A DNA stretch of 63,825 nucleotides, the filler included, from an uncultured Methanosarcinales archaeon (lineage in GTDB: Archaea; Nanobdellota; Nanobdellia; Woesearchaeales; DATDXC01): NCBI GenBank assembly GCA_964510025.1. It is 4 parts of 4 records of this genome, joined end to end, with 100 filler letters (N's around TTAATTAATTAA, not from the genome) between each part and the next. Parts side by side here need not be neighbours in the genome. Positions count along the whole stretch, not along the records: positions 1 to 28,090 come from CAZDZV010000017.1; 3 more parts are not named here. One strand, 5' to 3'. Positions 12,775-28,190 of the stretch are shown here, one piece after another. Numbering within the stretch: position 1 is the stretch's first letter; every line of letters starts with the position of its first letter. Below the pieces are notes generated by a model that was not told the origin of the DNA, did not search any database, and was given only the letters and a program-made list of their open reading frames with translations. The position numbers were made by a program, and so were the translations under genes.

Positions 12775-13830
12775 CTATCTATCATCCAGATATTGCCCGA
12801 TCCTCTTCAAGCCTTCTTGGATCTTATCAGTATCTAGAGCATAGCTTAATCTTATCCTATCTGGAGAGCCAAACCATTCGCCCAGATAGGTGATTACCTT
12901 ATATCTCTTGTATAGATTCCATACTGCATCCCTTGGCTTTTCTATCTTTGGAAAGACGTAGAAAGCTCCTTCAGGCTTCCATAGCTCAAGCCCAAGCTTG
13001 ACGAGCCCCTCATAGATGACATTTCTTCTTTCTTTCCATATAGCCACCTGTCTTTTGATGTAGTCCTTAGGGACCTTTGTAGCTTCGTAAGCCATCTCCT
13101 GGCTGAGTATGTTTGTATTCATCGATGTATGGGTCTTCATCTCCACTACATTGTCAACAATCTGCTTGTCGTTTGAGTAGAGGTAGCCTACCCTGAATCC
13201 GCACATTGCAAAAGTCTTGGAGAAGGAATTAACAGTCACTACGTGCGGCCCGTGCAGCATGTAATTTTCTCTTTCATAGATCAGGTCCTTATAAACCTCA
13301 TCAGATATTATGATTATATCAAGGTCTGCACACAGCTTCTCGATCTTCTTAAGGGTATTAATCTCCTGTATCCTTCCTGTTGGATTGGATGGAGAGTTGA
13401 TCAGCACAGCCTTGCAGCTCCTCACTTTTTCATCGAAGTCATCAAAGTCGATTTTGCCCTTAATAGTCTCAGTAAATACAGGTTTTAGGTGATTCATGGA
13501 AACAAGAGGGGGATAAGAATAATAATATGGCTTATGCAGCAGTATTTTTTCTCCTGGTTTTGAGATGGACCTGAACAGGATATCCAGCGCTTCAGAAGCT
13601 CCGTTTGTAATGACAAAATTCTCAGCAGCAGATCCAGGGTACTGTTTAGCCAAAGCTTCTCTAAGATTAACCTGGCCAGTTATAAGGCCGTACTTAAATT
13701 GGCAGTAATTTGGCAGTATCTCAAAGACCCTGTCAGGCGGGGGCAGATCTGGCTGGCCAGAGCCAAAGCTGATTACTCCGTTCCCTTGAATTCCGATAAA
13801 GATTGATGGGCTTCTTAGTTGGTCTGCCAT
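12775..13830 (-). CDS. PLP-dependent aminotransferase, class I/II
   Basis: ITNGASEAL, NSPSNPTG, ISDEVY, SFSKTFAMCGFRVG, IRLSY. Confidence 0.92.
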   Translation of the reverse strand: MADQLRSPSIFIGIQGNGVISFGSGQPDLPPPDRVFEILPNYCQFKYGLITGQVNLREALAKQYPGSAAENFVITNGASEALDILFRSISKPGEKILLHKPYYYSYPPLVSMNHLKPVFTETIKGKIDFDDFDEKVRSCKAVLINSPSNPTGRIQEINTLKKIEKLCADLDIIIISDEVYKDLIYERENYMLHGPHVVTVNSFSKTFAMCGFRVGYLYSNDKQIVDNVVEMKTHTSMNTNILSQEMAYEATKVPKDYIKRQVAIWKERRNVIYEGLVKLGLELWKPEGAFYVFPKIEKPRDAVWNLYKRYKVITYLGEWFGSPDRIRLSYALDTDKIQEGLKRIGQYLDDR

Positions 13831-13913
13831 TTTTATAAACTACAAAAGAATATCCTATCCCGCCGCTGCTACTCTAAACATAACACGATATAAATAGAAA
13901 TATATATTTAAAT

Positions 13914-14756
13914 TTATGCTTTTTTCATCCAGACATCCCGCTGCGGGAAGGGGATGGTAATCTTGTTCTTGTCAAACTCTTCTTTTATCTTTCTTATGGT
14001 CTCGAAATAAACATCCCAGTAATCTTCTTTCTTGACAGCTGGTCTTACCGCTATATTGACAGAGCTGTCTCCGAGGCTTTTTACAACAACCTGCGGCTTC
14101 GGATCTTTAAGCACCCTTTTATCCTTGCTTAATATGGAGTTTATTACTTTTATTGCCTTGCCTATATCATCTGAATAGCTTATGCCCACTTCGAGATTGA
14201 AGATCTTTCTGACAGAATTTCCAGTATAATTCTGTATCGTATCGCCCCATATCTTGCTGTTGGGTATTGTTATCTTGACGCCGTCTGGAGACTTGAGCGT
14301 GCATGCCGCGATCCCTATTTGCTCCACTCCCCCGACTACGCCTCCGATATTCACCCAGTCATCGACCTTGAAAGGTTTATGAAAAAGTATAAACAGCCCT
14401 GATGCCAGGTTTCCAAGCGTATCTTTGAGTGCAAACCCCACTATAAATCCCATTATCCCTAATCCAGCTATGAGTCCGGAAACATCCACTCCAAGATTAG
14501 CCAGTATTATCACTGCCAGGATTATCCATAATAATACCCCGGCCACGTTCTCGATAAATATCTCCATTGACCTGTCAAAATCGACCTTATCAAAGAACTT
14601 GCTGATCGCTTTCCTTAGGAATTTTATGATAAAGAATCCTATTGCGAATACTATTAGCGAGAAGATCAGCTTGGGCATGTAATCAGCTGCCTTAGCTATA
14701 AGCTCATCCTTAAGGTTTGCAAAAAAACCTAGCTCCTGGGCGATTGTATGATTCAT
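13914..14756 (-). CDS. mscS: Small-conductance mechanosensitive channel (MscS family)
   Basis: Three TM helices, GFALKDTLGNLASG, TIPNSKI, VGISYSDD, IPFPQRDV; GAGGA SD before ATG 14756. Confidence 0.92.
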   Translation of the reverse strand: MNHTIAQELGFFANLKDELIAKAADYMPKLIFSLIVFAIGFFIIKFLRKAISKFFDKVDFDRSMEIFIENVAGVLLWIILAVIILANLGVDVSGLIAGLGIMGFIVGFALKDTLGNLASGLFILFHKPFKVDDWVNIGGVVGGVEQIGIAACTLKSPDGVKITIPNSKIWGDTIQNYTGNSVRKIFNLEVGISYSDDIGKAIKVINSILSKDKRVLKDPKPQVVVKSLGDSSVNIAVRPAVKKEDYWDVYFETIRKIKEEFDKNKITIPFPQRDVWMKKA

Positions 14757-14815
14757 ATATTCCTCTTTTTCATGGGAAATTAACAATAAGTTTTATATAA
14801 AGGTTATGGTTTTAT

Positions 14816-15031
14816 ATGCATATGAGAAAAGGTATTTTCTTCCTGGTGATACTACTTATTACAATAGCTATTTTTTTGAACAGCTGCGCGGACGAGCAAA
14901 AGCAGATGCAGGAACAGTATGAGAAATGCACTTCTGTCTGCTCCTCTGTTATCGTTACAGAAGATTATGTCACATTGCATCTTTGCAATGAAGAATGCAA
15001 AAAGAAATTTCTTAACTCTAGTTCTCAGTGA
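14816..15031 (+). CDS. Small Cys-containing lipoprotein
   Basis: Basic-hydrophobic leader ending FLNSC; CxxxC...CxxxC. Confidence 0.55.
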   Translation: MHMRKGIFFLVILLITIAIFLNSCADEQKQMQEQYEKCTSVCSSVIVTEDYVTLHLCNEECKKKFLNSSSQ

Positions 15032-15539
15032 TATTGATTGTAGTGGAACATGGCAGCTTTGTAGCAGCCCTTCTTAGCGCTTTCCTGGCCAGTGGAAGAT
15101 TGCTTTTGTCTACCTTGACCTCAAAAATGATATCGCCTTTCTTGAACCTAGCAGCCTGGCCGATCGGCTTGCCAAAGGATTTCTGCATCCCTGTGCTGAA
15201 TCTGTCTGCACCAGCTCCAGAGGCCAAAGGATTTTCCCTTAAAATATGATGAGGGTATGCTCGGATCCTCATGTAATACCCGCCGGTTCCAAGCGCGCCT
15301 TCCAGCACCCTGTTTGAGGTTGTTCTTGCGCTCTCAAGCGCATTATCTCTGATCTGCATATTCTTGTTTATAAGAAGCTTTAGGGTATAGCTGAATTTAC
15401 GCTTTGGATTCCCCATCTGGAACCGGATAACCTTTGTATTGGGAGTTACCCTGATGAAAGACTTCTTCCTCTTGCTGGATACCCGGGTATATGGGCGCTC
15501 AACTGACCTATAAGCTGAAAATTTCCTTAATTTTGCCAT
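15018..15539 (-). CDS. rpl10e: 50S ribosomal protein uL16 (L10e)
   Basis: RPYTR, QIRDNALESAR, PHHILRENPLASGAGADR, GMQKSFGKPIG, KLP. Confidence 0.96.
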   Translation of the reverse strand: MAKLRKFSAYRSVERPYTRVSSKRKKSFIRVTPNTKVIRFQMGNPKRKFSYTLKLLINKNMQIRDNALESARTTSNRVLEGALGTGGYYMRIRAYPHHILRENPLASGAGADRFSTGMQKSFGKPIGQAARFKKGDIIFEVKVDKSNLPLARKALRRAATKLPCSTTINITEN

Positions 15540-15574
15540 TTAGTTCAGAAATAAAGGTTGATTTTTAAAAGTTT

Positions 15575-17107
15575 CTATTCATATTCTATTGTGCCTGGGG
15601 GTTTCTGGGTGATGTCATAGACCACCCTATTCACTCCCTGCACCTCGTTTATTATCTTGTTTGAGACCTTTTCAAGAAATGATGCTGGCAGCTTAGCCCA
15701 ATCAGCTGTCATCGCATCTTTGGAAGTGACCGCCCTTAGGGATATGACATATTCATAGGTCCTGGAATCACCCATGACTCCTACAGACTTGACAGGCAGC
15801 AGCGCTGCAAAAGCCTGCCATGTCTTTTCATATAGCCTGTTTTTCTTGAGTTCCATGATGAAGATGTGGTCTGCCTCTCTCAAGATAGCCAGACGCTCAT
15901 CTGTTACCTGGCCTAAGATCCTTATAGCCAGTCCCGGCCCTGGAAACGGGTGCCTGTATAATAGCTCTTCCGGAATCCTGAGCTGCCTGCCTAGTTTCCT
16001 GACACCATCTTTATACAGTTCCTTGATGGGCTCAAGAACCTTAAGTCTCATATTCTTCGGCAAAGTAAGGTTATGATGGCTTTTGATCTTATCTGCCTGT
16101 TTGCTTGGCTGAGCAGATTCGATCCTGTCTGGATATATTGTGCCCATGGCCAGGAATCTCACATTCTTGTATTTCCGGCCTATCTTGACAGCTTCTTTTT
16201 CAAAAACATCGATAAAGGTATGGCCGATTATCCGTCTCTTCTTCTCTGGGTCCCTCACTCCTTTAAGTCTCTTTAGGAAAATCCTTGAAGCATCCACATA
16301 TCTTACATTCAGTTTAAGTCTGGAGTAGCGCTGCTTTATAATTTCAATCTCATTCTTCCTTAGCAGCCCGTGATCTATTAATATGCAGTGCAGCTTTCTT
16401 CCTATCGCCCTGCTGATCAGCGTTGCTGCAACAGTGGAATCAACGCCCCCAGAGATGCCCATTATTGCAGAATTGTTGCCTACTGTTCTCTTGATCTCCT
16501 GTACCAGTTTTTTTGGCAGATTTTCTATTCTAAAATCCCTCTTGGAGCCGCATATATCAAACGCAAAATTTGCAAGCATCTGGTTGCCGTTTTCAGTGTG
16601 GACCACTTCAGGGTGAAACTGGACTCCGAAGATATTCTTGCCTAAATCCCCAATTGCCGCATTTCTGCAGGCATCGGTTGACGCTAAGCTCATGAAGTTA
16701 GGAGGTAGCTTTTCGATCAGATCGCCATGGGACATCCAGACTTTCTGCTTAGGCCTAAGGTGCTTGAAGAGCTTATCCCTGTTCCTCACCTTGAGTGTCT
16801 TTTTTCCATACTCCTTGATTGAATTTGCAATGACTTTTCCCCCAAAATGCTTGCCGATCAGGTGGTGCCCATAGCAAATGCCAAGTATAGGGATTCCAAG
16901 TTCAAACAGGCCTTTGCTTGGTTTAGGGGCACCCTTACGATAAACAGACGAAGGCCCTCCTGAAAGGATTATTCCGTCTGGATTAAGACCTCTTATCTTA
17001 TCCAATTTCACATTAAAAGGTAGAATTTCAGAATAAACATGGAGATCCCTTATCCTTCTTGCGATAAGGTGGCAGTATTGCCCCCCAAAGTTTATTATCA
17101 CAATCAT
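15575..17107 (-). CDS. guaA: GMP synthase (glutamine-hydrolysing), fused GATase and ATPPase
   Basis: GICYG, VQFHPEV, SGGVDS, IKSHHN, HPFPGPGL, KPPGTIEYE. Confidence 0.96.
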   Translation of the reverse strand: MIVIINFGGQYCHLIARRIRDLHVYSEILPFNVKLDKIRGLNPDGIILSGGPSSVYRKGAPKPSKGLFELGIPILGICYGHHLIGKHFGGKVIANSIKEYGKKTLKVRNRDKLFKHLRPKQKVWMSHGDLIEKLPPNFMSLASTDACRNAAIGDLGKNIFGVQFHPEVVHTENGNQMLANFAFDICGSKRDFRIENLPKKLVQEIKRTVGNNSAIMGISGGVDSTVAATLISRAIGRKLHCILIDHGLLRKNEIEIIKQRYSRLKLNVRYVDASRIFLKRLKGVRDPEKKRRIIGHTFIDVFEKEAVKIGRKYKNVRFLAMGTIYPDRIESAQPSKQADKIKSHHNLTLPKNMRLKVLEPIKELYKDGVRKLGRQLRIPEELLYRHPFPGPGLAIRILGQVTDERLAILREADHIFIMELKKNRLYEKTWQAFAALLPVKSVGVMGDSRTYEYVISLRAVTSKDAMTADWAKLPASFLEKVSNKIINEVQGVNRVVYDITQKPPGTIEYE

Positions 17108-17138
17108 AGAAACAGAGAGCGCTATTTATTTATAAAGG

Positions 17139-18233
17139 TTATGGTTCAATATACTCTACCAGTTCACCTTTGTAGTTCTTGAACACTATCTTATCTCCGG
17201 TCTTCTCCACGATATAATCAGGGAGTATTGGGATCTTGCCTTTTCCTCCTTCTGCATCGATTATAAGCTGAGGGACAGCTACACCAGAGGTGAAGCCCCT
17301 AAGTGCATGGATTATCTTAAGCCCTTCCTCTAGCCTTGGGCGGAAATGGGAAGTGCCTTTAACTAAGTCAGGCATATAGATATAGTACGGCTTGACCCTC
17401 ATCTTTAAAAGGCCATGCATAAGTTTTTTCATGACTTCCGGGCTATCATTAACCCCTTTGAGCAGCACACTCTGGTTGCCTAAAGGTATGCCTGCATCTG
17501 CAAGCATCTCGCATGCTTTAATGCTGTCATCTGTTATTTCTGAAGGATGGTTGAAATGTGTGTTGATGAAAAGAGGATGATATTTTTTTAGCATGTTGCA
17601 CAGCTCTGGCGTTATCCTCTGCGGCAGAGCACACGGGGTCCTTGTGTCTATCCGTATCATCTCTACATGGGGTATCTTCTTAAGTTCCTTCAGGATGAAT
17701 TCTAGATAGATGTCTGACAGCAGGAAAGGGTCGCCTCCGCTCAAGATGACATCCCTGACCTCTGGATGGAACTGGATGTACTGTATGCCCCCCATTATCT
17801 GTTCCTTGGTGATCCTCTTGAATGGGTTGCCGACTCTTCTTTTCCTTGTGCAGAACCTGCAGTACATAGCACAGTTGTTTGATACCATAAGCAGTACTCT
17901 GTCAGGATAACGATGGACCAGTCCCGTTACAGGTGAGTCTCTTTCCTCGCATAAAGGATCAGGCATGCCCCTGATATCATTAAGCTCTGCTTCATCAGGT
18001 ATGCACTGCTTCCAGATGGGATCATCTTTCTTCTGGATGAGGCTGAGATAATAGGGATTGATTCGCATAGGGTATTTCTTTATGACATCAGCTACTGTCT
18101 CTTTCCTTACATCTCCTTTGCAGACAGAGTCCAGCTGCTGCTCATCAACTATGCTTTTCTTAAGAAGCTCCCGCCACAACTCTACCTGGACCACTTCTTT
18201 CACAAAGCTTTTTTTCAAGAGTGTCTTTTCCAT
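17139..18233 (-). CDS. kamA: KamA-family radical SAM/PLP aminomutase (lysine 2,3-aminomutase-like)
   Basis: HRYPDRVL, CAMYCRFCTR (CxxxCxxC), LSGGDP, NQSVLLKGVND, PLP-Lys motif DAEGGKGKIP. Confidence 0.9.
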   Translation of the reverse strand: MEKTLLKKSFVKEVVQVELWRELLKKSIVDEQQLDSVCKGDVRKETVADVIKKYPMRINPYYLSLIQKKDDPIWKQCIPDEAELNDIRGMPDPLCEERDSPVTGLVHRYPDRVLLMVSNNCAMYCRFCTRKRRVGNPFKRITKEQIMGGIQYIQFHPEVRDVILSGGDPFLLSDIYLEFILKELKKIPHVEMIRIDTRTPCALPQRITPELCNMLKKYHPLFINTHFNHPSEITDDSIKACEMLADAGIPLGNQSVLLKGVNDSPEVMKKLMHGLLKMRVKPYYIYMPDLVKGTSHFRPRLEEGLKIIHALRGFTSGVAVPQLIIDAEGGKGKIPILPDYIVEKTGDKIVFKNYKGELVEYIEP

Positions 18234-18263
18234 TTTATAGCTTACACTAGTTTGCGTCTAAAA

Positions 18264-18374
18264 TTATACATAAAATACTGTAGATACCTGCTGGCCTGAC
18301 TTTTTTGGAACAAAAATCGATCTGAAAACAGATAAAGTCAGTCTTTTTGTATTTTTTTTGTTTTCCAAAAACAT
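18264..18374 (-). CDS. Possible 36-aa small ORF upstream of kamA (MFLENKKNTKRLTLSVFRSIFVPKKSGQQVSTVFYV)
   Basis: Read manually; ATG 18374 to TAA 18264, downstream of a TTTAAATA box at ~18409-18416; below the ORF-track cutoff. Confidence 0.25.
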   Translation of the reverse strand: MFLENKKNTKRLTLSVFRSIFVPKKSGQQVSTVFYV

Positions 18375-18557
18375 TTGATTTTTCTGATTTAACCTATGTG
18401 GGTTCTAATATTTAAATGTAACTGTTTTCTCTTTTTTACCGACGACATTTTTGAATATTTTTTTTGATTTTTTTGCCGATTTTCATTGCTGAGATTTTTG
18501 TTTTATAATTTCTCGACGAAATATCTTCATAGAAATTTTATTGCTCTCCAAAAAATC

Positions 18558-18893
18558 TTACAGAAATCTGTCCACCTTGTTTTCTTTGTTCAGCAGAAGA
18601 ATCTTTGGATCAGCTGGCTTATCGCTAAGCTCAAATCCCATGACTATTATCTCTTCTCCTTCCTTTATCAGATGGGCTGCAGCTCCGTTCATGGCAATCA
18701 TGCCGCTTTCCCCCGGTATGACATAAGTCTCAAGCCGGTTCCCGGATGTGTTGCTTACCACAAGGACTTTTTCTCCCTCGATAAGTCCGGATTTTTCCAT
18801 AAGTTTCCTGTCTATCGTTATGCTGCCTACATAGTCTACATTAGCCTCCCTGACATTGGCCTTAAGGAGCTTTGACCTTAATATCCATCTCAT
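18558..18893 (-). CDS. panD: Aspartate 1-decarboxylase (pyruvoyl, bacterial type)
   Basis: LRSKL, YVGSITID (G-S autocleavage site), GNRLETYVI, MNGAAAHL. Confidence 0.9.
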   Translation of the reverse strand: MRWILRSKLLKANVREANVDYVGSITIDRKLMEKSGLIEGEKVLVVSNTSGNRLETYVIPGESGMIAMNGAAAHLIKEGEEIIVMGFELSDKPADPKILLLNKENKVDRFL

Positions 18894-18928
18894 ATTGCTG
18901 AGTATTCAATCTTGCTTTAAAAAATTTT

Positions 18929-20251
18929 TCAAAATCGGCAGCCTGCATACCTGTCACTAAACTTTTCCCTGCTCTTTGCTATATATATCTTATCAGAACT
19001 TTTTGCGATATATGGTGCAATGGGCTTGATGAATCGCCAGGCGCAGCAGAAAGTGTAGGCTCCTTGGTGCAGCACAGCCAGGACATCTCCTTTTTTTATT
19101 TCTTTTCCGTAATAGCTGTAGCCCCATAGGTCGGACGGATCGCATAGGGCCCCATATATCACCTTTCGTTTAAGCTGAAGGGAAGGACTAGAAAGATTGA
19201 CTATCGGTGCAAAGCTATATTCCTCAAATCGATAGTCCCCTACAAGGTTTATCCCGCCATCGGTGATGACGCAGCCGCCCTTTACTGAACTGACCCTAAC
19301 TAGTATAGACGTAGAATGGGTTGCGATAAACCTGCCCGGCTCAAGATAGATCTTGCATCCTAGCTTCTCTTTTTTCAGGGCAGCAGCTATGCTTCTGGCA
19401 AATTTTTCTAGTGGATCGACTTTTTCAACTGAAAACAGATAAGGGTCCATATCTGTCTTGGTTATTTCTAGCTCCGAGAGTATCTTTATTAGATCATATT
19501 TTAGGCTGTATTTGTGCAGCTCGCCGATATCTTCCGGATAGAAGCCGCCACCTAGATCCAGAAACTCCAGATTATATTTCCGGATATACTTCCCAAGTGC
19601 ACGGATGCCTTCTATATATCTTGCAGGCTCCTGGTTCCAGCTGCAGTGGAAATGCAGCCCTTTGAGCTGCAGGCTGCTGGAAGCCCTTACCATATTGATC
19701 GCTTTATCAAGTTCGTCCATATTTACCCCGAATTTAGACCATGCCTTTGTCAATGTGTCGGAAGGATTGACCCTTATGCCAACCTTTACCGGTTTTTTAG
19801 GTCTCATCGAGATGATCTTCTCGATCTCATCGATATTATCCACATTGATGACCAGATCATGCTCGATGGCTAACCTTAGTTCCTCATGGCCCTTGCCTGG
19901 TCCAGTGAATACAATTTTCCTGAACCCGAGTTTTATCGCCAGCTGAAGCTCATATATCCCCGCAACATCAGCATGGTATCCTTCGTCCAGCACCGTCTTT
20001 GCTATTTCAGGCAGATCATTGCATTTGAAAGCATAAAAAACCTCAACATCTGGTACATGTTTCCTGAAGGTATGCAGAAAGAATCTTGCCCTGGCTCTCA
20101 GCATGTCGGTGTCCAGAAAATACTGCGGCGTACCGAATCTCCTGGCGCTTTTAAGCATACTATCTATGTCCAGTTTTCTGATATATTTGTTATATACGCC
20201 GGGTTTGTCAGACTCCAGCTTCTTCTTCAAAAGCTTTTCAAGCGCCTTCAT
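18929..20251 (-). CDS. PLP-dependent fold-III decarboxylase (DAP/ornithine/arginine decarboxylase family)
   Basis: FYAFKCN (PLP Lys), FTGPGK, SKFG, LHFH, DLGGGF, EPGRF, GALCDPSD, GAY. Confidence 0.88.
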   Translation of the reverse strand: MKALEKLLKKKLESDKPGVYNKYIRKLDIDSMLKSARRFGTPQYFLDTDMLRARARFFLHTFRKHVPDVEVFYAFKCNDLPEIAKTVLDEGYHADVAGIYELQLAIKLGFRKIVFTGPGKGHEELRLAIEHDLVINVDNIDEIEKIISMRPKKPVKVGIRVNPSDTLTKAWSKFGVNMDELDKAINMVRASSSLQLKGLHFHCSWNQEPARYIEGIRALGKYIRKYNLEFLDLGGGFYPEDIGELHKYSLKYDLIKILSELEITKTDMDPYLFSVEKVDPLEKFARSIAAALKKEKLGCKIYLEPGRFIATHSTSILVRVSSVKGGCVITDGGINLVGDYRFEEYSFAPIVNLSSPSLQLKRKVIYGALCDPSDLWGYSYYGKEIKKGDVLAVLHQGAYTFCCAWRFIKPIAPYIAKSSDKIYIAKSREKFSDRYAGCRF

Positions 20252-21476
20252 TCTCAATCTCCAGTTTTAGATGTCTTTTCACCAGCTTAAAAATGTTTTG
20301 TATATCATTGACCTCATCAAATATAAGATAGCCTAGAAACATCTCCGTAGGATCGACCTGATTGAAGCGGACTATGTCTCCAGGTTGATTATAAAAAAAA
20401 TGACCGTCAAGGCCCCTAAAATCATCTATATCAAGCCTGATGATTTTGCCTTGCATGGGAGCGATTATGTGGACAGCCAGGCCCTGGCGTCTGTTGATCC
20501 CATATCTTGTTTTCCTTTGCATCTTAAGGTCGATCATTGCGCCTATAGAGCTGTAGCCGTATACCCTTTGCATCAGCACTATAAAAGTGCCGAATCCCGG
20601 CCTAATCGAGCATTCTACAACGAACATCCCGTCCCTGTTAATCTTGAAATCCACCATGCATACCCCTTCACCTATATGCAGGGATGTTGCCACCTTGCCG
20701 CACACTTCCAGTAGCTTTTCAAACTCTATTCCCTCGGATTTCATTGTATCCCTGTTCATCAGGAAATATCCTCCAAAAAGGCCAAAATAGCTGCTTGGCA
20801 GCTTCTTGACAGTCCTTAGAAGGCTGATGCGGCCGCCTGAAACCATAAAATCACAGCTGTACTCCTGGCCATCTATGAATTCTTCCACAAGATACTGTCT
20901 TCTTGAGTCAAACCATTTTTGTCCCCATTGCAGCTCCCTAAATCTCTTATCATCTTTGTCGATGCTTGCTTTGAATGCGAGCAAATTTCTCTTGAGGCTG
21001 GCCATATCTTTGTTGAAGAGCACAAACTCGCTGCCGCTCCCGCATATCGGCTTCAGCACATTCGGAAAGCTGATTTTGTTGTCTTCAGCAGTTTCTATCA
21101 TGCAATAATCTGCGCTAGGCACATCGCATGCTGAGAATCTTTTCTTCATGGCATATTTGTTGGATGCTATCTGCAGCACTTCTTCTGTATAGAAATCAAG
21201 CGAAAAGTGTTCTGCCAGGGCCTTTGTGAGCAGGAACTGCTCCTCGTCATCGATGCCCACTATACCCTGCAGCTTTATGTCATTCTTGTATATGTATTCC
21301 TCTATCTTGCTTATCAGCAGCTTTGTCGAGCTGAAATCATCGACTATATAGTGGCCATCATAATTGTAATCTTCCCTGAAATCCCTAGTGCATACCAGCA
21401 GCACATCCTTATGCTTGCCTATTAAAGAGTAGGAAAGTTCTTCATTAGGGATGTAGCTGGCAGGAAATAATATCAT
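20238..21476 (-). CDS. ATP-grasp ligase (L-amino-acid-ligase/carboxylate-amine ligase-like)
   Basis: NKYAMK, FPNVLKPICGSGSEFV, LVEEFIDGQEYSCD, MVDFK, VECSIRPG. Confidence 0.85.
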   Translation of the reverse strand: MILFPASYIPNEELSYSLIGKHKDVLLVCTRDFREDYNYDGHYIVDDFSSTKLLISKIEEYIYKNDIKLQGIVGIDDEEQFLLTKALAEHFSLDFYTEEVLQIASNKYAMKKRFSACDVPSADYCMIETAEDNKISFPNVLKPICGSGSEFVLFNKDMASLKRNLLAFKASIDKDDKRFRELQWGQKWFDSRRQYLVEEFIDGQEYSCDFMVSGGRISLLRTVKKLPSSYFGLFGGYFLMNRDTMKSEGIEFEKLLEVCGKVATSLHIGEGVCMVDFKINRDGMFVVECSIRPGFGTFIVLMQRVYGYSSIGAMIDLKMQRKTRYGINRRQGLAVHIIAPMQGKIIRLDIDDFRGLDGHFFYNQPGDIVRFNQVDPTEMFLGYLIFDEVNDIQNIFKLVKRHLKLEIENEGA

Positions 21477-21477
21477 T

Positions 21478-22785
21478 TCAGACTACTTCCTTTATTATGC
21501 TGCCTATCTTGGAGCTCAGCTTAGCCGGCATGCTCAACGATCTGTGTATGCCAAAAAATTTCTTAAAAAGCTCATCTTCTCTGGACTTTGCTTCATCCAG
21601 GAAGCTTTTCTTAAAAAGCTCAAGAAGATCGCCTCTGACCCCTCTTTTATGGGCCAGATAGAAGGCAAAAAGCTGCTCATCTCTTACAGCTCGGGGCTTT
21701 TCATATGCCCTTCCTGGTTTTGAGAAAAGTGGGTAGTATCTTTTGAACTCTTTGCTGAAAAAATCTATTTGAAAGCCTGCTTTTTTTGGATCGACGCCGA
21801 CTGCTTTGCTATAAAGATAGTTTTTTGCGCACATAGGGCATTTATAACACCATCTGCCTTTTCTGTTCCCCCCGCAGGACATCAGGAAAGGAAGGAGTTT
21901 TTTATACCTCTCGTTAAGCATCTTATACTCCACAATATTGTAAATAGGCTCAATGAGGCTTACAACACGGAAGCCTGTGCCAAATCTTTCCAGACTTAGG
22001 TTGGAAAGATACATATACTCTGAAGTCTGATCATATGAAGGATAAGCTCTGTAGCCATCCTTGTTCATAAAGCTATCGTTGAAGTTCTGTTCATTCCCCA
22101 TTATTAAATATTTAGCATCCACATTATGCGCTATGGGAAGCACCTCGAGTGTATACGATAACATGGCATTTGTTCTGATAAACTCATGGTACATATATGA
22201 GCCGCGGTTGAAAAGACGGTCTGTATTATCCCTAACAAAGATTACATCCTCTCCAAGCATTTGTTTAAATCTCCTTATTATTGACAATTTATGCCTATAT
22301 TCATTCCTGTCCACCTCTTCAGTATCATTAAAAAAAACTAAGGTAACATGCATCCCAAGCTCTTTAGCCAGACCATAGCTAAGAAGGCTGTCTTTTCCAA
22401 AGGACATGCCGATTAGAGCATCATCAGGGCTAGGTGCTCGCAGCGAAATCTTCGGCTTATCTTTGTGCTTAAAAAAAACTCTCCTTCTGTTAAAAGAATC
22501 CACCAAAGACTTAGTGCTGCAGTCCAGCTCATCTGCAACAAGCGGTAGTTCCTTATATATGCCCTTGTCGATCAGGTTTTCAAAAAAAACCTTTTGATCA
22601 AAACTAAGCCTTCTTTCAAGGCATTTCGGAGCAGTTAATAGATATAAAAGGTTCTCTGCTATCCTTCTTGTGTTATCAAGACCAAAATCAGTGTAATCCT
22701 CAGAGTATTCAATCACATATTTGTGCTTTCCTACTAAAATCTGGATTTTGTCTGCAGAAACGGATAAACCAGCCATCCTAAACAT
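21478..22785 (-). CDS. MurL-like / PP-loop adenine-nucleotide alpha-hydrolase superfamily protein (paralog B)
   Basis: MSFGKDSLLSY PP-loop-like motif, GNEQ, YPSYDQ, LMSC, WCYKCPMC; clear paralog of the upstream gene; start uncertain (22815/22785/22776). Confidence 0.65.
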   Translation of the reverse strand: MFRMAGLSVSADKIQILVGKHKYVIEYSEDYTDFGLDNTRRIAENLLYLLTAPKCLERRLSFDQKVFFENLIDKGIYKELPLVADELDCSTKSLVDSFNRRRVFFKHKDKPKISLRAPSPDDALIGMSFGKDSLLSYGLAKELGMHVTLVFFNDTEEVDRNEYRHKLSIIRRFKQMLGEDVIFVRDNTDRLFNRGSYMYHEFIRTNAMLSYTLEVLPIAHNVDAKYLIMGNEQNFNDSFMNKDGYRAYPSYDQTSEYMYLSNLSLERFGTGFRVVSLIEPIYNIVEYKMLNERYKKLLPFLMSCGGNRKGRWCYKCPMCAKNYLYSKAVGVDPKKAGFQIDFFSKEFKRYYPLFSKPGRAYEKPRAVRDEQLFAFYLAHKRGVRGDLLELFKKSFLDEAKSREDELFKKFFGIHRSLSMPAKLSSKIGSIIKEVV

Positions 22786-24130
22786 CCAGCTCTTCTTTGT
22801 AGATTGATTCCACATCTGTTCTTATCTTGGCAGGTAAGGTCTTGGACCGATACACCGAAAAAAAGGCATTCATCAGGTCTTCTTCCTTTTCCTTGGCTAG
22901 CGCAAGATATTTTTTCTTGAAAACATCTATGAGCTGTCCTTTTACTCCTCTTTTGTATGCCATATAAAAAGCCAGCAGCTGCTCTTCTCTCCCACAACCG
23001 CTAGCATCATAGCCAGTTTTTGCTCCGGCATCTAATCCGAATATAGAATACAATTTCCGGAATTTCATATCGAGCATGTTCGTGTTATAACCGAATGATT
23101 TAGGATCAAATCCATTAGCTAGTAGAAAAATGAAAATTCTGGCGCATTTGGGGCAATGCTGGCAAAGGTAGTAATCGGAACCGTGCTCGGTGTCATCAGG
23201 AAAGCAGGAAATCTGATACCTGCCTAGATTAGGATATCTGCTATGGAGTATTTTGATGATAGCCAGCTCATTCAGCGGTTCTACCAAGCTAACCACACAT
23301 CCTTGCGAGCTTGTCAACGCCTTTATCATCCTATCGAGCTGGATCATCCATTCGCTTGATTGGTCATAGACAGGATAAGCCTTATAGCCATCTTTATTTA
23401 TATAAAAATCATTACAGCTTTGCTCATTTCCTAGGATGAGATATTTTGCTTTTAGATAATGCGCAAATGGAAGCAGATTTAGGGATAGCTCTGTAAGAAG
23501 ATGGCCATATCCCCATTCGCTTTTTCTGTTCCCCCAGAACATCGACCTGTGTATGATGGAGGTATTGTTTACGAGCTCCCACACTTTCGTCTTGAACTCT
23601 CTTGAAAATTTTTGGGCAATACTCTTTTTATGTTTGTTCTCGATTGGACAGTCTACATCAGAAGTCTGTACCGGCTTAGGCTCAAGCTTTATCTCATCAG
23701 CCACCCCATAGCTTAGAAGGCTTTCTTTGCCGAACGACATGGACAATATCGCCTTTTCATCCAGGATTCCTGGGTACTCTGCAATCTGCGTGGATATGCC
23801 TTTGAAATCAAAATCAAGATTCATGAACCTCTTTATCTCTTCAGCAGTTGAAAGATTGTCCACATCCGCACAAAAAGAAATATTATTTAGTATGCAGTTA
23901 AAAATCGCGTGCTTGAACATCGGATTCTTTGTGCTGTAATATATCTTCTTGGTGGATTCCATAAACTGGGGAAGGTGTATTGTTTTAAGGAAGGCATAGT
24001 TATTTACCATGATCTCCTTAAATTCAGTGGGGTAGCTGCCCCAGATTTCCTCAGGATAATCTAGTGAAAATTTCTTGTCATCTATATGCAGCTCTATGCC
24101 CTGCGCAGTTGCCTTACAACCTACTTTCAT
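22778..24130 (-). CDS. MurL-like / PP-loop adenine-nucleotide alpha-hydrolase superfamily protein (paralog A)
   Basis: MSFGKESLLSY, GYGHL, GNEQSCN, YPVYDQS, ISC, CQHCPKCARIFIFL; motif order matches MurL as recalled. Confidence 0.65.
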   Translation of the reverse strand: MKVGCKATAQGIELHIDDKKFSLDYPEEIWGSYPTEFKEIMVNNYAFLKTIHLPQFMESTKKIYYSTKNPMFKHAIFNCILNNISFCADVDNLSTAEEIKRFMNLDFDFKGISTQIAEYPGILDEKAILSMSFGKESLLSYGVADEIKLEPKPVQTSDVDCPIENKHKKSIAQKFSREFKTKVWELVNNTSIIHRSMFWGNRKSEWGYGHLLTELSLNLLPFAHYLKAKYLILGNEQSCNDFYINKDGYKAYPVYDQSSEWMIQLDRMIKALTSSQGCVVSLVEPLNELAIIKILHSRYPNLGRYQISCFPDDTEHGSDYYLCQHCPKCARIFIFLLANGFDPKSFGYNTNMLDMKFRKLYSIFGLDAGAKTGYDASGCGREEQLLAFYMAYKRGVKGQLIDVFKKKYLALAKEKEEDLMNAFFSVYRSKTLPAKIRTDVESIYKEELDV

Positions 24131-25122
24131 ATGGAGCCCCCATGTTTACCTCTGGACAAAGCGCTTTCTATTATAACCGATATCATTTTTTTGTACTCAT
24201 ATCCCTGCACTTTTACCATTGCAGCCAGCCCTGCATCGAGGGATATATCTGGGTTGGGATTGACCTCCAGTATGTAGGGGTTCCCTTTCTTGTCTACACG
24301 AAAATCTACCCTAAAATAATCCCGGCATAGCATCAGGTTTGCGGCCCGCAATGCCAGCTTCACCAGCCTCTTTTTCAGCGCTGAGGTGATATTAGCAGGG
24401 CATTGCCTTACTGTACCATTGTAGTCTATGCTTCCTTCTTTCCATTTCGCCGAGTAATTCACTATCCTGGGCTTCCCGGATGGTAAGTCGAATTTAATCT
24501 CTGATACAGGAAGTACGATATCACCGATAACACCAACATTATACTCACTGCCATCTATGTAGCTTTCTACCAGCGCTGGCTGATTATATTCATCGATAAT
24601 ATGCCTGATCCTCTGGCTGAGCTCATCAGCGTTATTTACGACAGACTCATCTCTGATTCCGATCGAAGCATCTTCATGTACTGGCTTGACAATCAAAGGA
24701 AAATCCAAGCTTGACTTATCTGTTGCCTTCTTAAAAACATTGAACTCAGGAGTAGGTATCTTATGATATGCTAGAAGTTTCTTTGCTCTGGCCTTATTGA
24801 GACATAGCGCCAAGCTCAGATAAGACGATCCAGTATAAGGTATTCCGAGCAAATCAAGCATCGCTGGAACATGCGGCTCTAGCTCTGGATCTGAAAAGAA
24901 GCCGTCATCACACAGGTTAAACACCAGATCAAGATTATTTTTTTCTTTTCTTAGCTTTTCAAAAATATCCAGATCTACATAATAGCTGGTCACATCATGC
25001 CCTAGCTCCTTTAAGGCAGTCATGACAGATTCAGCATCATCATTGGTGTCCCTTCCTTCCCAGTCCTTTTGTGAAGGATCTGCATATTTATCCCTTCTGG
25101 TAAAAATGACGCCGATTTTCAT
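24127..25122 (-). CDS. D-Ala-D-Ala ligase-like ATP-grasp protein (copy 2)
   Basis: DLVFNL, LLGIPYTGS, NKARAK, FPLIVKP, ASIGI, YSAKW, FRVDFR, LEVNPNP. Confidence 0.88.
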   Translation of the reverse strand: MKIGVIFTRRDKYADPSQKDWEGRDTNDDAESVMTALKELGHDVTSYYVDLDIFEKLRKEKNNLDLVFNLCDDGFFSDPELEPHVPAMLDLLGIPYTGSSYLSLALCLNKARAKKLLAYHKIPTPEFNVFKKATDKSSLDFPLIVKPVHEDASIGIRDESVVNNADELSQRIRHIIDEYNQPALVESYIDGSEYNVGVIGDIVLPVSEIKFDLPSGKPRIVNYSAKWKEGSIDYNGTVRQCPANITSALKKRLVKLALRAANLMLCRDYFRVDFRVDKKGNPYILEVNPNPDISLDAGLAAMVKVQGYEYKKMISVIIESALSRGKHGGSI

Positions 25123-25145
25123 CTTTAATTCCTTAATCTGCATTA

Positions 25146-26153
25146 TTATTTAAGTCTTTTCCACCTTTTAATTGCAGAATCCAGGACTTCCTTGATTAGC
25201 CGGTTATAGCTCCATCCAGCTGAGTAAGCAGCTCTCGGAAGCCTTGAGTTTTCCCTGGGATCTTTCATAAATCCAGGCAGCGCATTTACTTCCAGAACAT
25301 TCGGCATGTTACTCTTGTCCAGCCGGATATCGATCCTGCACCAGTCTTTGCAGTCAAGAACCTCGAAGGTCTTAAGCGCTATTTGTCGTATTCTCCTTTC
25401 CAGATCCCTGTCAAGATTTGCGGGGCATTCCAGGGGATCCTTGCCTGATTTAGGATTATCATAAATCCATTTTGCCTCGTATGAGTCCATCGGGTGTATT
25501 CCATTAGGCAGATGGTCAAATCGTATCTCGACAATAGGAAGGACAATGGGGTTATGGTAGCCGATTACTGAGACGGTGAATTCTCTCCCTTGCAAAAACT
25601 CCTCGGCAATTGCCGGCTGTTTATAGTCTTTTTTTATTTTTTTTACGATCTTCTTCAGCTGGCTTTCGTTCTTTACCAGATTCTCGTTGAATAATCCTTT
25701 GGATGATCCCTCAAAAAGAGGTTTCACCAAAAGGGGAAAATCAAGCGAGATTTCATCATCCTCTTCTAATACCTGGAACCTTGGGGTCGGGATCCTGTTT
25801 CTATCTAGTATCTCTTTAGTCTTTGCTTTGTTAAGTGTGTTAATGAGTGTCTTAGAACCTGAAGCGCTGAAGGGTATGTTCAGCTCTTCGCATATCCTCG
25901 GTACAATGGCTTCCCTTTCCTCACCCAGGTTCCCTTCTGCAACATTGAAAACCAAGTCTATTTGGTCTTTCCTCGCCTCCAGTATTCCCCTTATATCCTC
26001 ACCGACATTTACAATTTCCACACTATGACCGTCTGCCCTGATCGCATCTGCTAGATCGTCTATGGTTTTTTCACTGTCAAATTCAGCGTATTTATCATCA
26101 CTGACATTATCTGGCTTGATGCTGGCTGTCAATAAGATCCTGATAAAAATCAC
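25146..26153 (-). CDS. D-Ala-D-Ala ligase-like ATP-grasp protein (copy 1); start possibly ATC at 26144
   Basis: DLVFNVAEG, NIPFSAS, FPLLVKPLFEGSSKG, GREFTV, YEAKW, CRIDIR, LEVNALPG. Confidence 0.88.
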   Translation of the reverse strand: MIFIRILLTASIKPDNVSDDKYAEFDSEKTIDDLADAIRADGHSVEIVNVGEDIRGILEARKDQIDLVFNVAEGNLGEEREAIVPRICEELNIPFSASGSKTLINTLNKAKTKEILDRNRIPTPRFQVLEEDDEISLDFPLLVKPLFEGSSKGLFNENLVKNESQLKKIVKKIKKDYKQPAIAEEFLQGREFTVSVIGYHNPIVLPIVEIRFDHLPNGIHPMDSYEAKWIYDNPKSGKDPLECPANLDRDLERRIRQIALKTFEVLDCKDWCRIDIRLDKSNMPNVLEVNALPGFMKDPRENSRLPRAAYSAGWSYNRLIKEVLDSAIKRWKRLK

Positions 26154-26201
26154 CTGAGAAAAACTGATTGTTAAGGCTATTTAAATATTTTTATTTAATC
26201 A

Positions 26202-27512
26202 TTATGATCGATAGCTGACGATATCGCTTAGCAAAACAAATGTGCCTTTGAATATTTGTTCAGGAGATGAATACTCTTCAGGTCGGTGGCTTCTGCCAAG
26301 TCTGCAGGGGATGAATCTCATTCCTACAGGTATCGCTGAATCATCAGACCTTTGTTGACCTGCTATGATCATACCATCATGGCCGGCTCCGCTTGGCATT
26401 ACTTTATATGAATACCCCAAATCACGACACGAGGAAATCCCCACTCTTTTCAGGTTATCATCCAACAAGGCTATTGGTTCTCCTTGGCTTACTGTAGAGA
26501 TCTCTGCAGATATATTATTCTTAGGCGAATACTGGGATACAATATTCCTGATGTACTCTACAAACCCATTAAGGGCAGCCTTATTATATCCACGGATGTC
26601 CAAATAAAACTCTAAATAGTCAGGGACTATATTAATCGCTGCATCCTCTCCAGTTTGTATCATAGTCACGTCCCAGACAATGTCTTCCTGTTTTTCCCTT
26701 ATTCTTCTCCAGCCCTCTCTTTCTATGGCATGATACATATGTGCAAAAGCTCTCGTAGTGCTGCTTCTTAATTCCATGGGGGTTGCACCGGAATGGTCAG
26801 GTTCTCCATATAGTCTTACTCTCAGGCGTTCATACCCCCTAATAGAGTTCACGATACCCATATCAAGATGAGAATGCTCCAGATCTCTCGCCTGCTCTAT
26901 GTGCAATTCGAGGTATGCTTCGACCAGATCTGGACTGATGCTTCCTTCCCCTTTTGCAACAGCCTCAATATCATAGTGATTGCCCACAAGCACATGTTCA
27001 AGAGTGATACCATTTGAATCCTCATATTTCAAAACTTCTGGGTCCAGTACGCCAAAAGCACATCTGGAGCCGATATATGGAACTTTAAATCTTGAAGATT
27101 CTTCACCTCGCCATATTACAACTGAAACGTTGAACTCAGGCTGAAAACCAATCCTTTTGATTGCTTTTAACGCTTCAAGTCCACCCACAATGCCCACAAT
27201 TCCATCGTAATTTCCACCATTAGGAACAGTATCAGCATGAGATCCCACAAAAAATGTCCTCCTATGCAGTGGATTCTCCACTAAGCTGATATACCTATTG
27301 CCGAATTCATCTTGCTCTACAAACAGGCCTTCTTTTTGCCCTACACTAGACAGATAATCCATAACTGCAGTCTCCTCAGGAGAAAAAGCCAGGCGTGTAT
27401 AGCCGCTTCCGCTTCTGCTTCTCCCTATCTCCGCAATTTTGGTTATATGCTGACAAATGCCTGTAGTCGTTATTACATCTCGAGCAGCATTTACTAGTGT
27501 GCGTTTATCCAT
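26202..27512 (-). CDS. M20-family Zn amidohydrolase (N-carbamoyl-amino-acid/allantoate amidohydrolase type)
   Basis: YTRLAFS, GSHADTVPNGGNYDG, EESSRF, ELHIEQ, DHSGATPM, SGAGHD, SHRPEE. Confidence 0.9.
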   Translation of the reverse strand: MDKRTLVNAARDVITTTGICQHITKIAEIGRSRSGSGYTRLAFSPEETAVMDYLSSVGQKEGLFVEQDEFGNRYISLVENPLHRRTFFVGSHADTVPNGGNYDGIVGIVGGLEALKAIKRIGFQPEFNVSVVIWRGEESSRFKVPYIGSRCAFGVLDPEVLKYEDSNGITLEHVLVGNHYDIEAVAKGEGSISPDLVEAYLELHIEQARDLEHSHLDMGIVNSIRGYERLRVRLYGEPDHSGATPMELRSSTTRAFAHMYHAIEREGWRRIREKQEDIVWDVTMIQTGEDAAINIVPDYLEFYLDIRGYNKAALNGFVEYIRNIVSQYSPKNNISAEISTVSQGEPIALLDDNLKRVGISSCRDLGYSYKVMPSGAGHDGMIIAGQQRSDDSAIPVGMRFIPCRLGRSHRPEEYSSPEQIFKGTFVLLSDIVSYRS

Positions 27513-27602
27513 AGGCTAGAGAATCCTTACACCCTATTTAAATCTTTCCAAATGTTATTACTTAAAAAAGACGACTAAAATGACAAAAAGCATTAGAAGA
27601 GT

Positions 27603-28090
27603 TTATGTACATATCCTGTCCAGCTTATCCAGCTCGATTGCCTTTTTTATCTCCATTGCTATCCTTTCACCGTAAGAAATGCTCTCACCGTAGAGATATC
27701 CGGTATGGGGTGTAAACCTGGTGCCAGGACTGCCGGGGATCCTGAAAGAAACATCAAATATTACGATCTCTTCTTTTCCCTCGAATGCAGCGACCGACCC
27801 CTGCAGCGCAAAGGGCCCGATTATTCCTGGAGGATGCTCCTTGCTGCATGTCTCAACAAACCGCTCACCTATCTTGAATATTTTCTCGATAATGCTTTCT
27901 TTGGTGGTAACTGCATAGTGCCCTGTCTCTATAAGCTTAGGCTGATTATACTTCAGTATCTCAAGCTGGATATCTGCCGGCAGTCTTAGGAACCCGTCAA
28001 GGTTAGTCTGCCTTCTGGTGTCTGTGCCCATTAGCTCCAGTTCTTTGTCTATCCCAGAATAAAAATAATTGAAATTGACTTGGGCCCCTA
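27603..28090 (-). CDS. purP: PurP-like formate--phosphoribosylaminoimidazolecarboxamide ligase family, 3' part truncated by the contig edge
   Basis: Frame open to the gap: AQVNFNYFYS...ELMGTDTRRQTNLDG, GIIGPFALQ, DVSFRIPGSP, GERIAMEIK. Confidence 0.82.
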
Positions 28091-28190
28091 NNNNNNNNNN
28101 NNNNNNNNNNNNNNNNNNNNNNNNNNNNNNNNNNTTAATTAATTAANNNNNNNNNNNNNNNNNNNNNNNNNNNNNNNNNNNNNNNNNNNN
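28091..28190. other. Artificial contig spacer (N run with TTAATTAATTAA all-frame stop linker)
   Basis: Identical 100-nt structure occurs three times. Confidence 0.98.

Follow-up and report, generated by a model that had tools for sequence, protein, structure and literature searches.

To our knowledge, MurL is the only ATP-driven enzyme that flips the last residue of a peptide from L to D, and the one setting known to us for this peptide epimerase is an alternative route of murein synthesis that few bacteria have. According to two reports on Xanthomonas oryzae, MurD2 adds L-Glu, and MurL, which requires ATP and Mg and releases AMP, then turns the terminal residue from L-Glu into D-Glu but not back (PMC5808125, PMC8788868). 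Here we analyse a cluster of nine genes at positions 17139-27512 of a 63,825-nucleotide stretch of DNA (the window) from an archaeon with a small genome from a microbial mat, in which amide ligase genes likewise lie beside genes for PP-loop proteins of the MurL family. The cluster encodes an M20 amidohydrolase (M20), two ligases resembling D-Ala-D-Ala ligase (Ddl; DdlA and DdlB), two MurL-like PP-loop proteins (PPa and PPb), a third ATP-grasp protein (AG3), a fold-III decarboxylase (DC3), PanD and KamA. Our preferred reading, which we hold with moderate confidence, is that it is a conserved cluster assembling a small β-lysine-containing peptide without the ribosome, by ligating a residue and then adenylating and probably epimerising it.

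Several described systems share parts of this gene set. Methanogens make Nε-acetyl-β-lysine with AblA and AblB, and like AblA the KamA of the cluster is a KamA-family aminomutase that has kept both Asp residues; unlike in that system, AblB is missing here, KamA scores below the AblA cut-off, and the partner is an ATP-grasp ligase, to which KamA is fused in two genomes. In the BtrJ/BtrK pair of butirosin synthesis BtrJ is an ATP-grasp ligase, and BtrK, like FslC of the FslA/FslC pair of rhizoferrin synthesis, decarboxylates an amino acid that is already conjugated. DC3 has full-length matches to both BtrK and FslC and always lies beside an ATP-grasp ligase, but neither a carrier protein nor a nonribosomal-peptide-synthetase-independent siderophore synthetase is found here. 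Ddl and the L-amino acid ligases (LALs; RizA-type 4wd3 and BL00235 3vot) share the ATP-grasp fold and the catalytic residues with DdlA and DdlB, LALs being the nearest solved structures for AG3. Unlike Ddl, DdlA and DdlB stay under the Ddl cut-offs and have residues of the pocket replaced, and a separate canonical Ddl is present in three of five carriers from the Candidate Phyla Radiation (CPR).

As to MurL itself, PPa and PPb agree in overall length with a homologue and share with it the PP-loop, the Cys cluster and two motifs, NE.S and [ER]PL. In contrast to MurD2/MurL, the partner here is a Ddl-type ATP-grasp ligase, a UDP-MurNAc context is missing and the carriers are archaea and other lineages; PPa and PPb also lie far under the cut-off of the MurL model, and epimerase activity is predicted for them by analogy. 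QueC, QatC (of QatABCD) and Cap9 (of type IV cyclic-oligonucleotide-based anti-phage signalling systems) have the PP-loop and a Cys-rich motif of zinc type in common with PPa and PPb and align with the PPa model (Z 14.4-15.3), but PPa and PPb lack a Pfam QueC match, no deazaguanine or defence genes lie around them, and what QueC-family enzymes produce is a nitrile or an amide to protein rather than an epimerised peptide. In the literature searched on MurL with ATP-grasp or D-amino-acid enzymes and on aminomutase, ATP-grasp and β-lysine in archaea, we found no description of the gene set, and a 2026 survey of the QueC family makes no mention of MurL. The cluster is a new variant on the known MurD2/MurL logic.

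Results

The gene set recurs in other genomes

We scanned one genome per species for genes of the PP family, as we call PPa, PPb and their relatives, and kept the best 80 of 139 confirmed loci; partner genes were detected with the window proteins as tblastn queries (E ≤ 1e-5). Loci and genomes are numbered with L and G, G000 being the assembly that holds the window. Seven of the nine genes recur together, namely those for the two Ddl-like ligases, a MurL-like protein, the LAL-type ATP-grasp protein, the fold-III decarboxylase, KamA and, sometimes, PanD. In G005, a genome of the same family, the order is GuaA-KamA-PanD-DC3-AG3-PP-DdlB-...-DdlA-...-PurP, in the same slot between GuaA and PurP, in G006 it is DdlA-DdlB-PP-AG3-DC3-KamA, and in L071 DdlA-DdlB-PP-AG3-DC3-PanD-KamA; large subsets of the cluster are found in L020, L022 and L068/L102. 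The set thus extends to DPANN archaea beyond the family. The original prediction had been ready to give up a common pathway if the gene set were not syntenic elsewhere; synteny is seen in all these cases. The recurrence of the same set in other genomes makes the association of the genes more than chance.

A Ddl-like gene lies within 5 kb of the PP gene in 48 of the 80 loci (40 of the 62 with at least 1.5 kb on both flanks) and directly adjacent on the same strand in 43 (35 of the 62). KamA is found within 5 kb in nine loci, all nine among the well-flanked ones, the decarboxylase within 8 kb in ten (10/62) and an AG3-like gene within 8 kb in twelve (11/62). Sub-modules of the cluster, i.e. Ddl-like with MurL-like, KamA with Ddl-like and MurL-like, and LAL-type with decarboxylase, occur widely in DPANN, CPR, Asgard and Bathyarchaeia. 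KamA and a Ddl-like ligase are fused in a single open reading frame (ORF) with a clean junction in L004 (685 aa) and L001 (697 aa), and LAL-Ddl fusions of ~730-840 aa are present in nine CPR loci. An apparent MurL-like-Ddl fusion of 803 aa (L033:9998-12409) was rejected as an artefact, as its junction is an N run (XXXX) followed by read-through of a spacer; a search for fused PPa relatives of more than 788 aa returned none, which is weak evidence.

Of the candidates scored, 173 are relatives of PPa at E ≤ 0.001, and those with a name belong to Woesearchaeota, Nanoarchaeota, Diapherotrites, Aenigmarchaeota, Gammaproteobacteria and CPR. When a profile was run against 1.84 billion cluster representatives, 190 of them matched at E ≤ 1e-30 and 592 when the limit was E ≤ 1e-10. 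The PPa clade consists of proteins associated with KamA and DdlA (10 rows, support 100/99) and the PPb clade of six rows, all in large clusters (support 100/99); the groups were named from the first tree, which leaves the support values as the sole independent evidence. Among the ligases a DdlA and a DdlB type can be told apart, the DdlB-type clade comprising 25 rows with a Shimodaira-Hasegawa-like support of 99 and the DdlA clade being sister to the one that contains the KamA-adjacent and KamA-fused ligases.

Other neighbours of PP genes include MR_MLE enolase-type proteins (L026, L043, L076, L027), an LD-carboxypeptidase (L034), a diaminopimelate (DAP) epimerase (L012), a beta-lactamase-family protein (L027) and Fem-like Acetyltransf_6 proteins (L022, L043). 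MR_MLE is, as we understand it, a Pfam family that includes dipeptide epimerases. These neighbours point to D-amino-acid and peptide chemistry. GNAT transferases also lie near PP genes.

Nine CPR versions of the cluster (L018, L026, L043, L076 and five more) have a two-ligase fusion of ~800 aa, in which a LAL-type ATP-grasp part with LAL_C2 is joined to a Ddl-like part, and contain in addition MR_MLE, Fem-like Acetyltransf_6, an extra ATP-grasp protein, the decarboxylase and several ORFs that match no Pfam family. The Aenigmarchaeota locus L016 holds a KamA-Ddl-PP triad amid PurB, PurC, PurA, PurE, PurQ and PurL, repeating a purine context.

PPa and PPb are remote relatives of MurL

PPa (24130-22778, minus strand, 450 aa) carries an SFGKES PP-loop and an SC...CxxCxxC cluster; PPb (22815-21478, minus strand, 445 aa) is 33% identical to it and has an SFGKDS motif. 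Neither matched any family in a Pfam scan. When a profile of 57 PP family sequences was aligned with a MurL homologue by hhalign, the two matched with a probability of 97.8% (E 9e-13, 154 columns), the N-terminal domains remaining unaligned. The homologue (L081:1297-2667) scores 210.8 bits on the MurL model NF041275, has a GGGKDS loop and lies between MurE/PgeF and MurD. In a joint alignment of nine PP members with this protein G134, K135, S137, E236, S281, P285, C323, C326, C329 and E383 are invariant; the shared PP-loop reads G-K-[DE]-S, and the shared invariants run over the whole length. Cys239, Glu236 and Tyr299 are candidate catalytic bases. In the protein Atlas the clusters nearest to PPa carry the Pfam 38.1 families PF26298/PF26299 (MurL_N, MurL_epimerase_C) with a score of 0.97. 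The hhalign match, the shared residues and the Atlas clusters bear out the MurL-like label that the pair had been given. Judged by sequence, PPa and PPb are remote MurL homologues and not MurL orthologues. They had also been read as two epimerising tailoring enzymes; of this the homology to MurL stands, and epimerisation would be carried over from a remote relative.

The genome that supplied the MurL homologue is a bacterial one of ~1 Mb with a Gammaproteobacteria name and a CPR-like size and gene content. Its locus L081 (G003:C1:517788-521780) reads MurE-PgeF-MurL-MurD, and the genome also holds a Ddl-like/PP module and a canonical Ddl beside MurF. This suggests that the MurD2/MurL route to D-Glu also runs in this genome.

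The AlphaFold2 model of PPa (predicted local distance difference test 93.6, predicted template-modelling score 0.93) matches QueC 3bl5 with Z 15.3 and a root-mean-square deviation of 2.8 over 194/199 residues, QatC with Z 15.0 over 318 residues and Cap9 with Z 14.4; Foldseek E-values range from 3e-6 to 8.6e-5, and the alignment with QatC takes in the N-terminal domain as well. A profile of 12 PP family sequences searched against the PDB gave nothing meaningful. Going by the model, PPa and PPb are PP-loop proteins of the QueC-type fold, and PPa is predicted to adenylate a carboxylate.

The structural matches also favour the main rival explanation, in which the peptide pathway is the same and the MurL-like proteins are not epimerases. 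Like QueC, AsnO, QatC and Cap9 they would use the acyl-adenylate for amidation with ammonia, for joining an amine or for cyclisation, which would yield a peptide amide or pseudopeptide, e.g. a compatible solute resembling N-acetylglutaminylglutamine amide (NAGGN) or a polyamine conjugate. One PP relative, P0064, passes the Pfam QueC model (25.6 bits, cut-off 22), and QueC-family proteins catalyse nucleobase-protein conjugation (PMC13279940). A precedent for peptide formation followed by amidation is NAGGN, which is made by the peptide-forming Ngg and the amidating AsnO (PMC8070244). It resembles the cluster by logic only, being a non-ribosomal dipeptide for which a peptide-forming ligase is combined with another enzyme that uses ATP and has the C-terminal carboxylate as its target; AsnO, however, is a glutamine-dependent enzyme of the asparagine-synthetase type, and neither a GNAT-ligase fusion nor a glutaminase is found here. 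SpeD or SpeE adjoins the PP gene in L031, L034, L052 and L061, loci that are related and represent few independent cases. The lack of an AblB in G000 that could cap β-lysine and the origin of the DNA from a microbial mat would fit this explanation as well. By sequence, however, the PP family is closer to MurL than to QueC, since hhalign of the family with bona fide QueC gave a probability of only 13.6%, and PPa and PPb do not match Pfam QueC (PF06508) even at E up to 10. No glutaminase partner occurs in any neighbourhood scanned, and many carriers are, from their record titles, groundwater CPR and sediment Asgard, for which the need for an osmolyte is not obvious. On balance we regard this rival as unlikely, though it is the alternative to be taken most seriously.

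That the QatC alignment covers 318 residues including the N-terminal domain could also mean that a macromolecule is modified instead of a free small molecule, be it a protein N-terminus in the manner of QatC/Cap9, a C-terminus in the manner of RimK/TTL, or a tRNA, with β-lysine being attached. DdlB shows a weak TTL and RimK signal, some CPR PP genes adjoin genes of seryl- or glutamyl-tRNA synthetase, and transferases of the Fem-like and LPG_synthase_C types, which use aminoacyl-tRNA, lie nearby in L022, L043, L068 and L076. The synthetase neighbours, however, come from few related genomes, the clusters scanned contain no conserved candidate target gene, G000 has an ordinary deoxyhypusine synthase, and the solved relatives of LAL and Ddl type that were listed all act on small substrates. 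We consider a macromolecular target very improbable.

In Microgenomates-type CPR, PP genes without a ligase lie between genes for seryl- or glutamyl-tRNA synthetase and thioredoxin-reductase-like genes (L055, L056, L072, L021, L060; L063, L079).

DdlA, DdlB and AG3 are predicted amide ligases

DdlA (26153-25146, minus strand, 335 aa) and DdlB (25143-24127, minus strand, 338 aa) are 36% identical to each other and match Pfam Dala_Dala_lig_C with E 4.8e-35 and 2.3e-29, respectively. On the Ddl model TIGR01205 (cut-off 245.65 bits) both stay under the threshold with 130.7 and 143.2 bits, and on the archaeal pseudomurein Ddl model (cut-off 500 bits) the two reach 65 and 49 bits. The positions corresponding to K97, K144, E180, K215, R255, D257, E270 and N272 of E. 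coli DdlB, which we take to be its ATP-grasp catalytic and nucleotide-binding residues, are invariant or nearly so in the ligase alignment. The D-Ala pocket, presumably formed by H63, S150, Y216, S281 and L282 of the E. coli enzyme, has changed: H63 is replaced by Glu in DdlA and Asp in DdlB, Y216 by Trp in both, and L282 by Arg in DdlA and Gly in DdlB, and S150 and S281 are kept in DdlA and are Ala in DdlB. As far as these residues tell, DdlA and DdlB are ligases, but not D-Ala-D-Ala ligases. The acidic residue in the pocket of the first substrate would suit a basic substrate such as β-lysine.

AG3 (21476-20238, minus strand, 412 aa) matches Pfam ATP-grasp_3 and ATP-grasp_4, and its nearest solved structure is the L-amino acid ligase 4wd3 (E 1.2e-11, residues 40-406). 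Its gene adjoins that of the decarboxylase in L020, L022, L071, L097 and L098, and its position beside the decarboxylase is taken by a similar ATP-grasp_3 protein in three CPR loci (L018, L026 and L043).

Ddl-like and MurL-like proteins side by side could be taken for a supply of cell-wall precursors, that is, racemase-free D-Ala-D-Ala or the stem peptide of murein or pseudomurein, and the LD-carboxypeptidase or Fem-like genes that adjoin them in CPR loci point the same way. Two of the five CPR genomes checked (G065, G067) have no Ddl above cut-off and no Alr. Against this, the D-Ala specificity residues are replaced and both ligases lie under the Ddl cut-offs and far under the pseudomurein Ddl model. 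The other three of the five cluster-bearing CPR genomes encode a canonical Ddl elsewhere (336-363 bits), in two of them beside Alr. Cell-wall supply is thus, in our view, extremely improbable, and a housekeeping supply of D-Ala-D-Ala was rejected for G000 and for these three CPR genomes. The cluster had been described as free of Mur ligases and of AblB; the genome as a whole has no AblB either, and its only Mur ligase signal is one weak Mur_ligase_M match of 38 bits on another contig.

KamA, DC3, PanD and M20

KamA (18233-17139, minus strand, 364 aa) contains the Pfam domains Radical_SAM and LAM_C and scores 305.6 bits on TIGR00238 (cut-off 199.2). Its best equivalog match is the AblA model TIGR03820, with 477.6 bits under a cut-off of 525.4. 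The radical-SAM motif CxxxCxxC is present as CAMYCRFC. KamA matches lysine 2,3-aminomutase 2a5h with E 2.4e-120. D293 and D330 of that enzyme, which we take to bind the lysine side chain, each align with an Asp of KamA; a literature search on the role of the two residues gave nothing relevant. KamA is therefore predicted from its sequence to be a lysine 2,3-aminomutase. A profile search of G000 for AblB found none, the best score being 15 bits against a cut-off of 205.1.

DC3 (20257-18929, minus strand, 442 aa) matches Orn_Arg_deC_N (E 6.3e-32). On the LysA model TIGR01048 it reaches 154.3 bits in two stretches (cut-off 297.9), and in the PDB it has full-length matches to BtrK 2j66, FslC 7kh2 and the D-Orn/D-Lys decarboxylase 8d2y, its best single match being a DAP decarboxylase.

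PanD (18893-18558, minus strand, 111 aa) matches Asp_decarbox with E 2.4e-34 (118.1 bits, Pfam cut-off 25) and falls slightly under the cut-off of TIGR00223 (100 vs 106); its VGS (Gly-Ser) self-cleavage site aligns with that of 2c45. Its gene follows DC3 in three genomes (G000, L071 and L097) and does not do so in L098. PanD had been cast as a dedicated supplier of monomers, and of this the identity of the enzyme holds. It is the sole copy in G000, and contig C16 of that genome holds PanB-PanC-CoaBC-PanK, so that it may serve coenzyme A (CoA) synthesis. The C16 genes lie in one row (L107, G000:C16:1500-13500) that comprises a GNAT protein, deoxyhypusine synthase, a small fold-III decarboxylase, PanB, PanC, CoaBC and pantothenate kinase; this is a bacterial-type pantothenate/CoA route, and a search of G000 for the archaeal phosphopantothenate synthetase (PPS) did not find it.

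M20 (27512-26202, minus strand, 436 aa) belongs to Peptidase_M20, scores 290.7 bits on the hydantoinase/carbamoylase amidase model TIGR01879 (cut-off 204) and has N-carbamoyl-L-amino acid hydrolase 3n5f as nearest solved structure (E 5.5e-57). A tblastn search with M20 of 89 related loci returned no match, and in G005 a methyltransferase takes its place. Although it had been counted as part of the cluster, M20 was rejected as a member, as it lacks synteny in the 89 loci and has a TATA-like box of its own, and is probably a mere neighbour.

The sole PanD copy and the CoA genes on C16 also fit an explanation by which housekeeping genes of separate functions lie side by side and have no common product, with KamA serving osmolyte synthesis or lysine catabolism, PanD CoA synthesis, DC3 acting as LysA or polyamine decarboxylase and the ligases doing something else. 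The best single PDB match of DC3, the absence of M20 from related loci, the position of the cluster between purine genes, and the separation of KamA by 324 nt with a conserved promoter-like block of its own are in keeping with it. The same set, however, recurs in differing genomic contexts, the six central genes overlap or abut, and KamA is fused to a ligase in two genomes; DC3 reaches about half of the LysA cut-off and travels with AG3 in CPR and DPANN loci. Housekeeping genes are moreover a poor fit because the PP family is accessory in the order, being present in 9 of 61 genomes. We judge such a chance assembly distinctly improbable.

Gene arrangement and transcription signals

All nine ORFs lie on the minus strand. 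The original prediction had listed nine co-oriented genes at 17139-27512 in the order from M20 to KamA, and the ORF coordinates agree exactly, as they do for its statement that the six central genes overlap or abut; its family assignments are shared by Pfam and NCBIfam, with the qualifications given above. The gaps are 48 nt between M20 and DdlA, 2 nt between DdlA and DdlB, 1 nt between PPb and AG3, 35 nt between DC3 and PanD and 324 nt between PanD and KamA, and the overlaps are 4 nt (DdlB/PPa), 38 nt (PPa/PPb) and 20 nt (AG3/DC3). From DdlA to PanD, therefore, each of seven genes overlaps its neighbour or lies at most 35 nt from it.

A TATA-like box, TTTAAATA, is located at 26178-26185 (minus strand), 25-32 nt upstream of the DdlA start, and is likely the promoter of a unit from DdlA to PanD; a second TTTAAATA box lies at 27535-27542 (minus strand), 23-30 nt upstream of the M20 start. 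The window contains 16 copies of TTTAAATA against 3.5 expected, and at least 16 were reached in 0 of 100 shuffles. A scan of the DdlA-to-PanD block (26153-18558) for TTTAAATA found none.

The intergenic region between PanD and KamA (18234-18557, minus strand) has a conserved promoter-like block, which includes a TTTAAATA TATA box at 18409-18416, ~176 nt before the KamA start. It also has a TCGTCGAGAA motif as an exact match at 18510-18519, and TCGTCGAG-like motifs occur once or twice. When the corresponding gaps upstream of KamA (window 18234-18557, minus strand; L097:5803-6091; L071:14291-14672; L098:7120-7439) were aligned, the block AAAACAGTTACATTTAAATAT proved to be kept in the four genomes. 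Taken together, these elements resemble a promoter that is regulated and followed by a long leader. Because TTTAAATA boxes precede M20 and DdlA and none lies inside the DdlA-to-PanD block, the cluster can be read as three transcription units, namely M20 alone, DdlA to PanD, and KamA, perhaps with GuaA, which lies 31 nt downstream of KamA.

Genome context

G000 is a 1.70-Mb assembly of 33 contigs with a completeness of 97.7%, and the cluster stretch is present in three DNA runs, all from one microbial-mat study, and in no RNA run listed. The window joins four contigs with N spacers at 28091-28190, 53149-53248 and 60004-60103, the first of which carries a short TTAATTAATTAA linker mid-way. The cluster contig, C17, comprises positions 1-28090; as had been noted before, it ends at 28090, the N run beginning at 28091. 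On both sides the cluster is flanked by genes on the minus strand, by a truncated PurP (DUF1297; 27603-28031) at the contig end and by GuaA (15575-17107). About 2.4 kb downstream of KamA, past GuaA and the gene of ribosomal protein L10e, lies a gene for an MscS-type mechanosensitive channel (13914-14786, minus strand). An Rfam search of 13000-28090 at E up to 0.1 gave no match.

Discussion

The recurring gene set and its sub-modules suggest a pathway built from three modules, for which we infer the substrates, the order of steps, epimerisation after adenylation, the product and its role. Module A, consisting of KamA, a DdlA-type ligase and a PPa-type protein, would make β-lysine and ligate it. 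Module B, a DdlB-type ligase with a PPb-type protein, would add a further residue, and module C, a LAL-type ligase with the decarboxylase, would ligate a residue and then decarboxylate. Both Ddl-like ligases and the LAL-type ligase would thus form amide bonds, their substrates being putative. By analogy with MurL, each PP protein of the MurL family may adenylate the new C-terminal carboxylate and then probably invert the residue from L to D. DC3 may strip the carboxyl group from a diamino or acidic amino acid, either ligated or free.

Several observations weigh against this reading. β-Lysine lacks an α-amino stereocentre, so that a MurL-type reaction cannot act on a C-terminal β-lysine. G005, G006, L071 and L068 each have two Ddl-like ligases and a single PP protein, and a strict pairing of one ligase with one epimerase therefore fails. 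In 21 of the 62 well-flanked loci the window proteins detect no ligase partner. The PP family is also patchy within the order, being found in 9 of 61 genomes, counting G000, and in 5 of the 42 of high quality. As regards MurL, PPa reaches just 15.6 bits (E 0.0044) on NF041275, which has a cut-off of 700 bits, and PPb has no match to it; BLASTP of a PP protein with the MurL homologue gave E 3e-7 at a low identity of 25% over 181 residues, and Cys239, near-invariant in the PP family, is Ser in the homologue. The neighbours of PP genes are Ddl-type ATP-grasp ligases and not a Mur ligase, and QueC, QatC and Cap9, the nearest solved relatives, turn the adenylate into an amide and not an epimer. Finally, PanD may simply feed CoA synthesis.

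Assembly of a β-lysine-containing peptide by ligation, adenylation and probable epimerisation may be one instance of something broader. We tentatively propose that pairs of a Ddl-type ligase and a MurL-type epimerase constitute a ligate-then-flip system that is widespread and operates in DPANN, CPR, Asgard and Bathyarchaeia. It would make short peptides rich in D- and β-amino acids without ribosomes, nonribosomal peptide synthetases or free D-amino acids. No earlier MurL-type epimerase would then be known from archaea or from any process other than murein synthesis. In the archaeon studied here two such pairs, a β-lysine starter and a ligate-then-decarboxylate pair would work on one product.

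As for the role of the product, an osmolyte, a component of the envelope and a mediator that acts between symbiont and host are speculative candidates, and the polymer or polyamide and the roles put forward in the original prediction are likewise speculative. The QueC family has recently gained roles in anti-phage defence, and if the adenylate is used for amidation, the cluster would reveal a new peptide-acting branch of adenylating enzymes with the QueC fold. The module is small, with two or three genes that are sometimes fused, which makes work in vitro possible without culture. If MurL relatives epimerise, they would offer a general racemase-free way to place D-residues in small peptides. 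Few genes for secondary metabolites can be recognised in DPANN, CPR and Asgard, and the proposed system, if true, would give them a dedicated peptide pathway.

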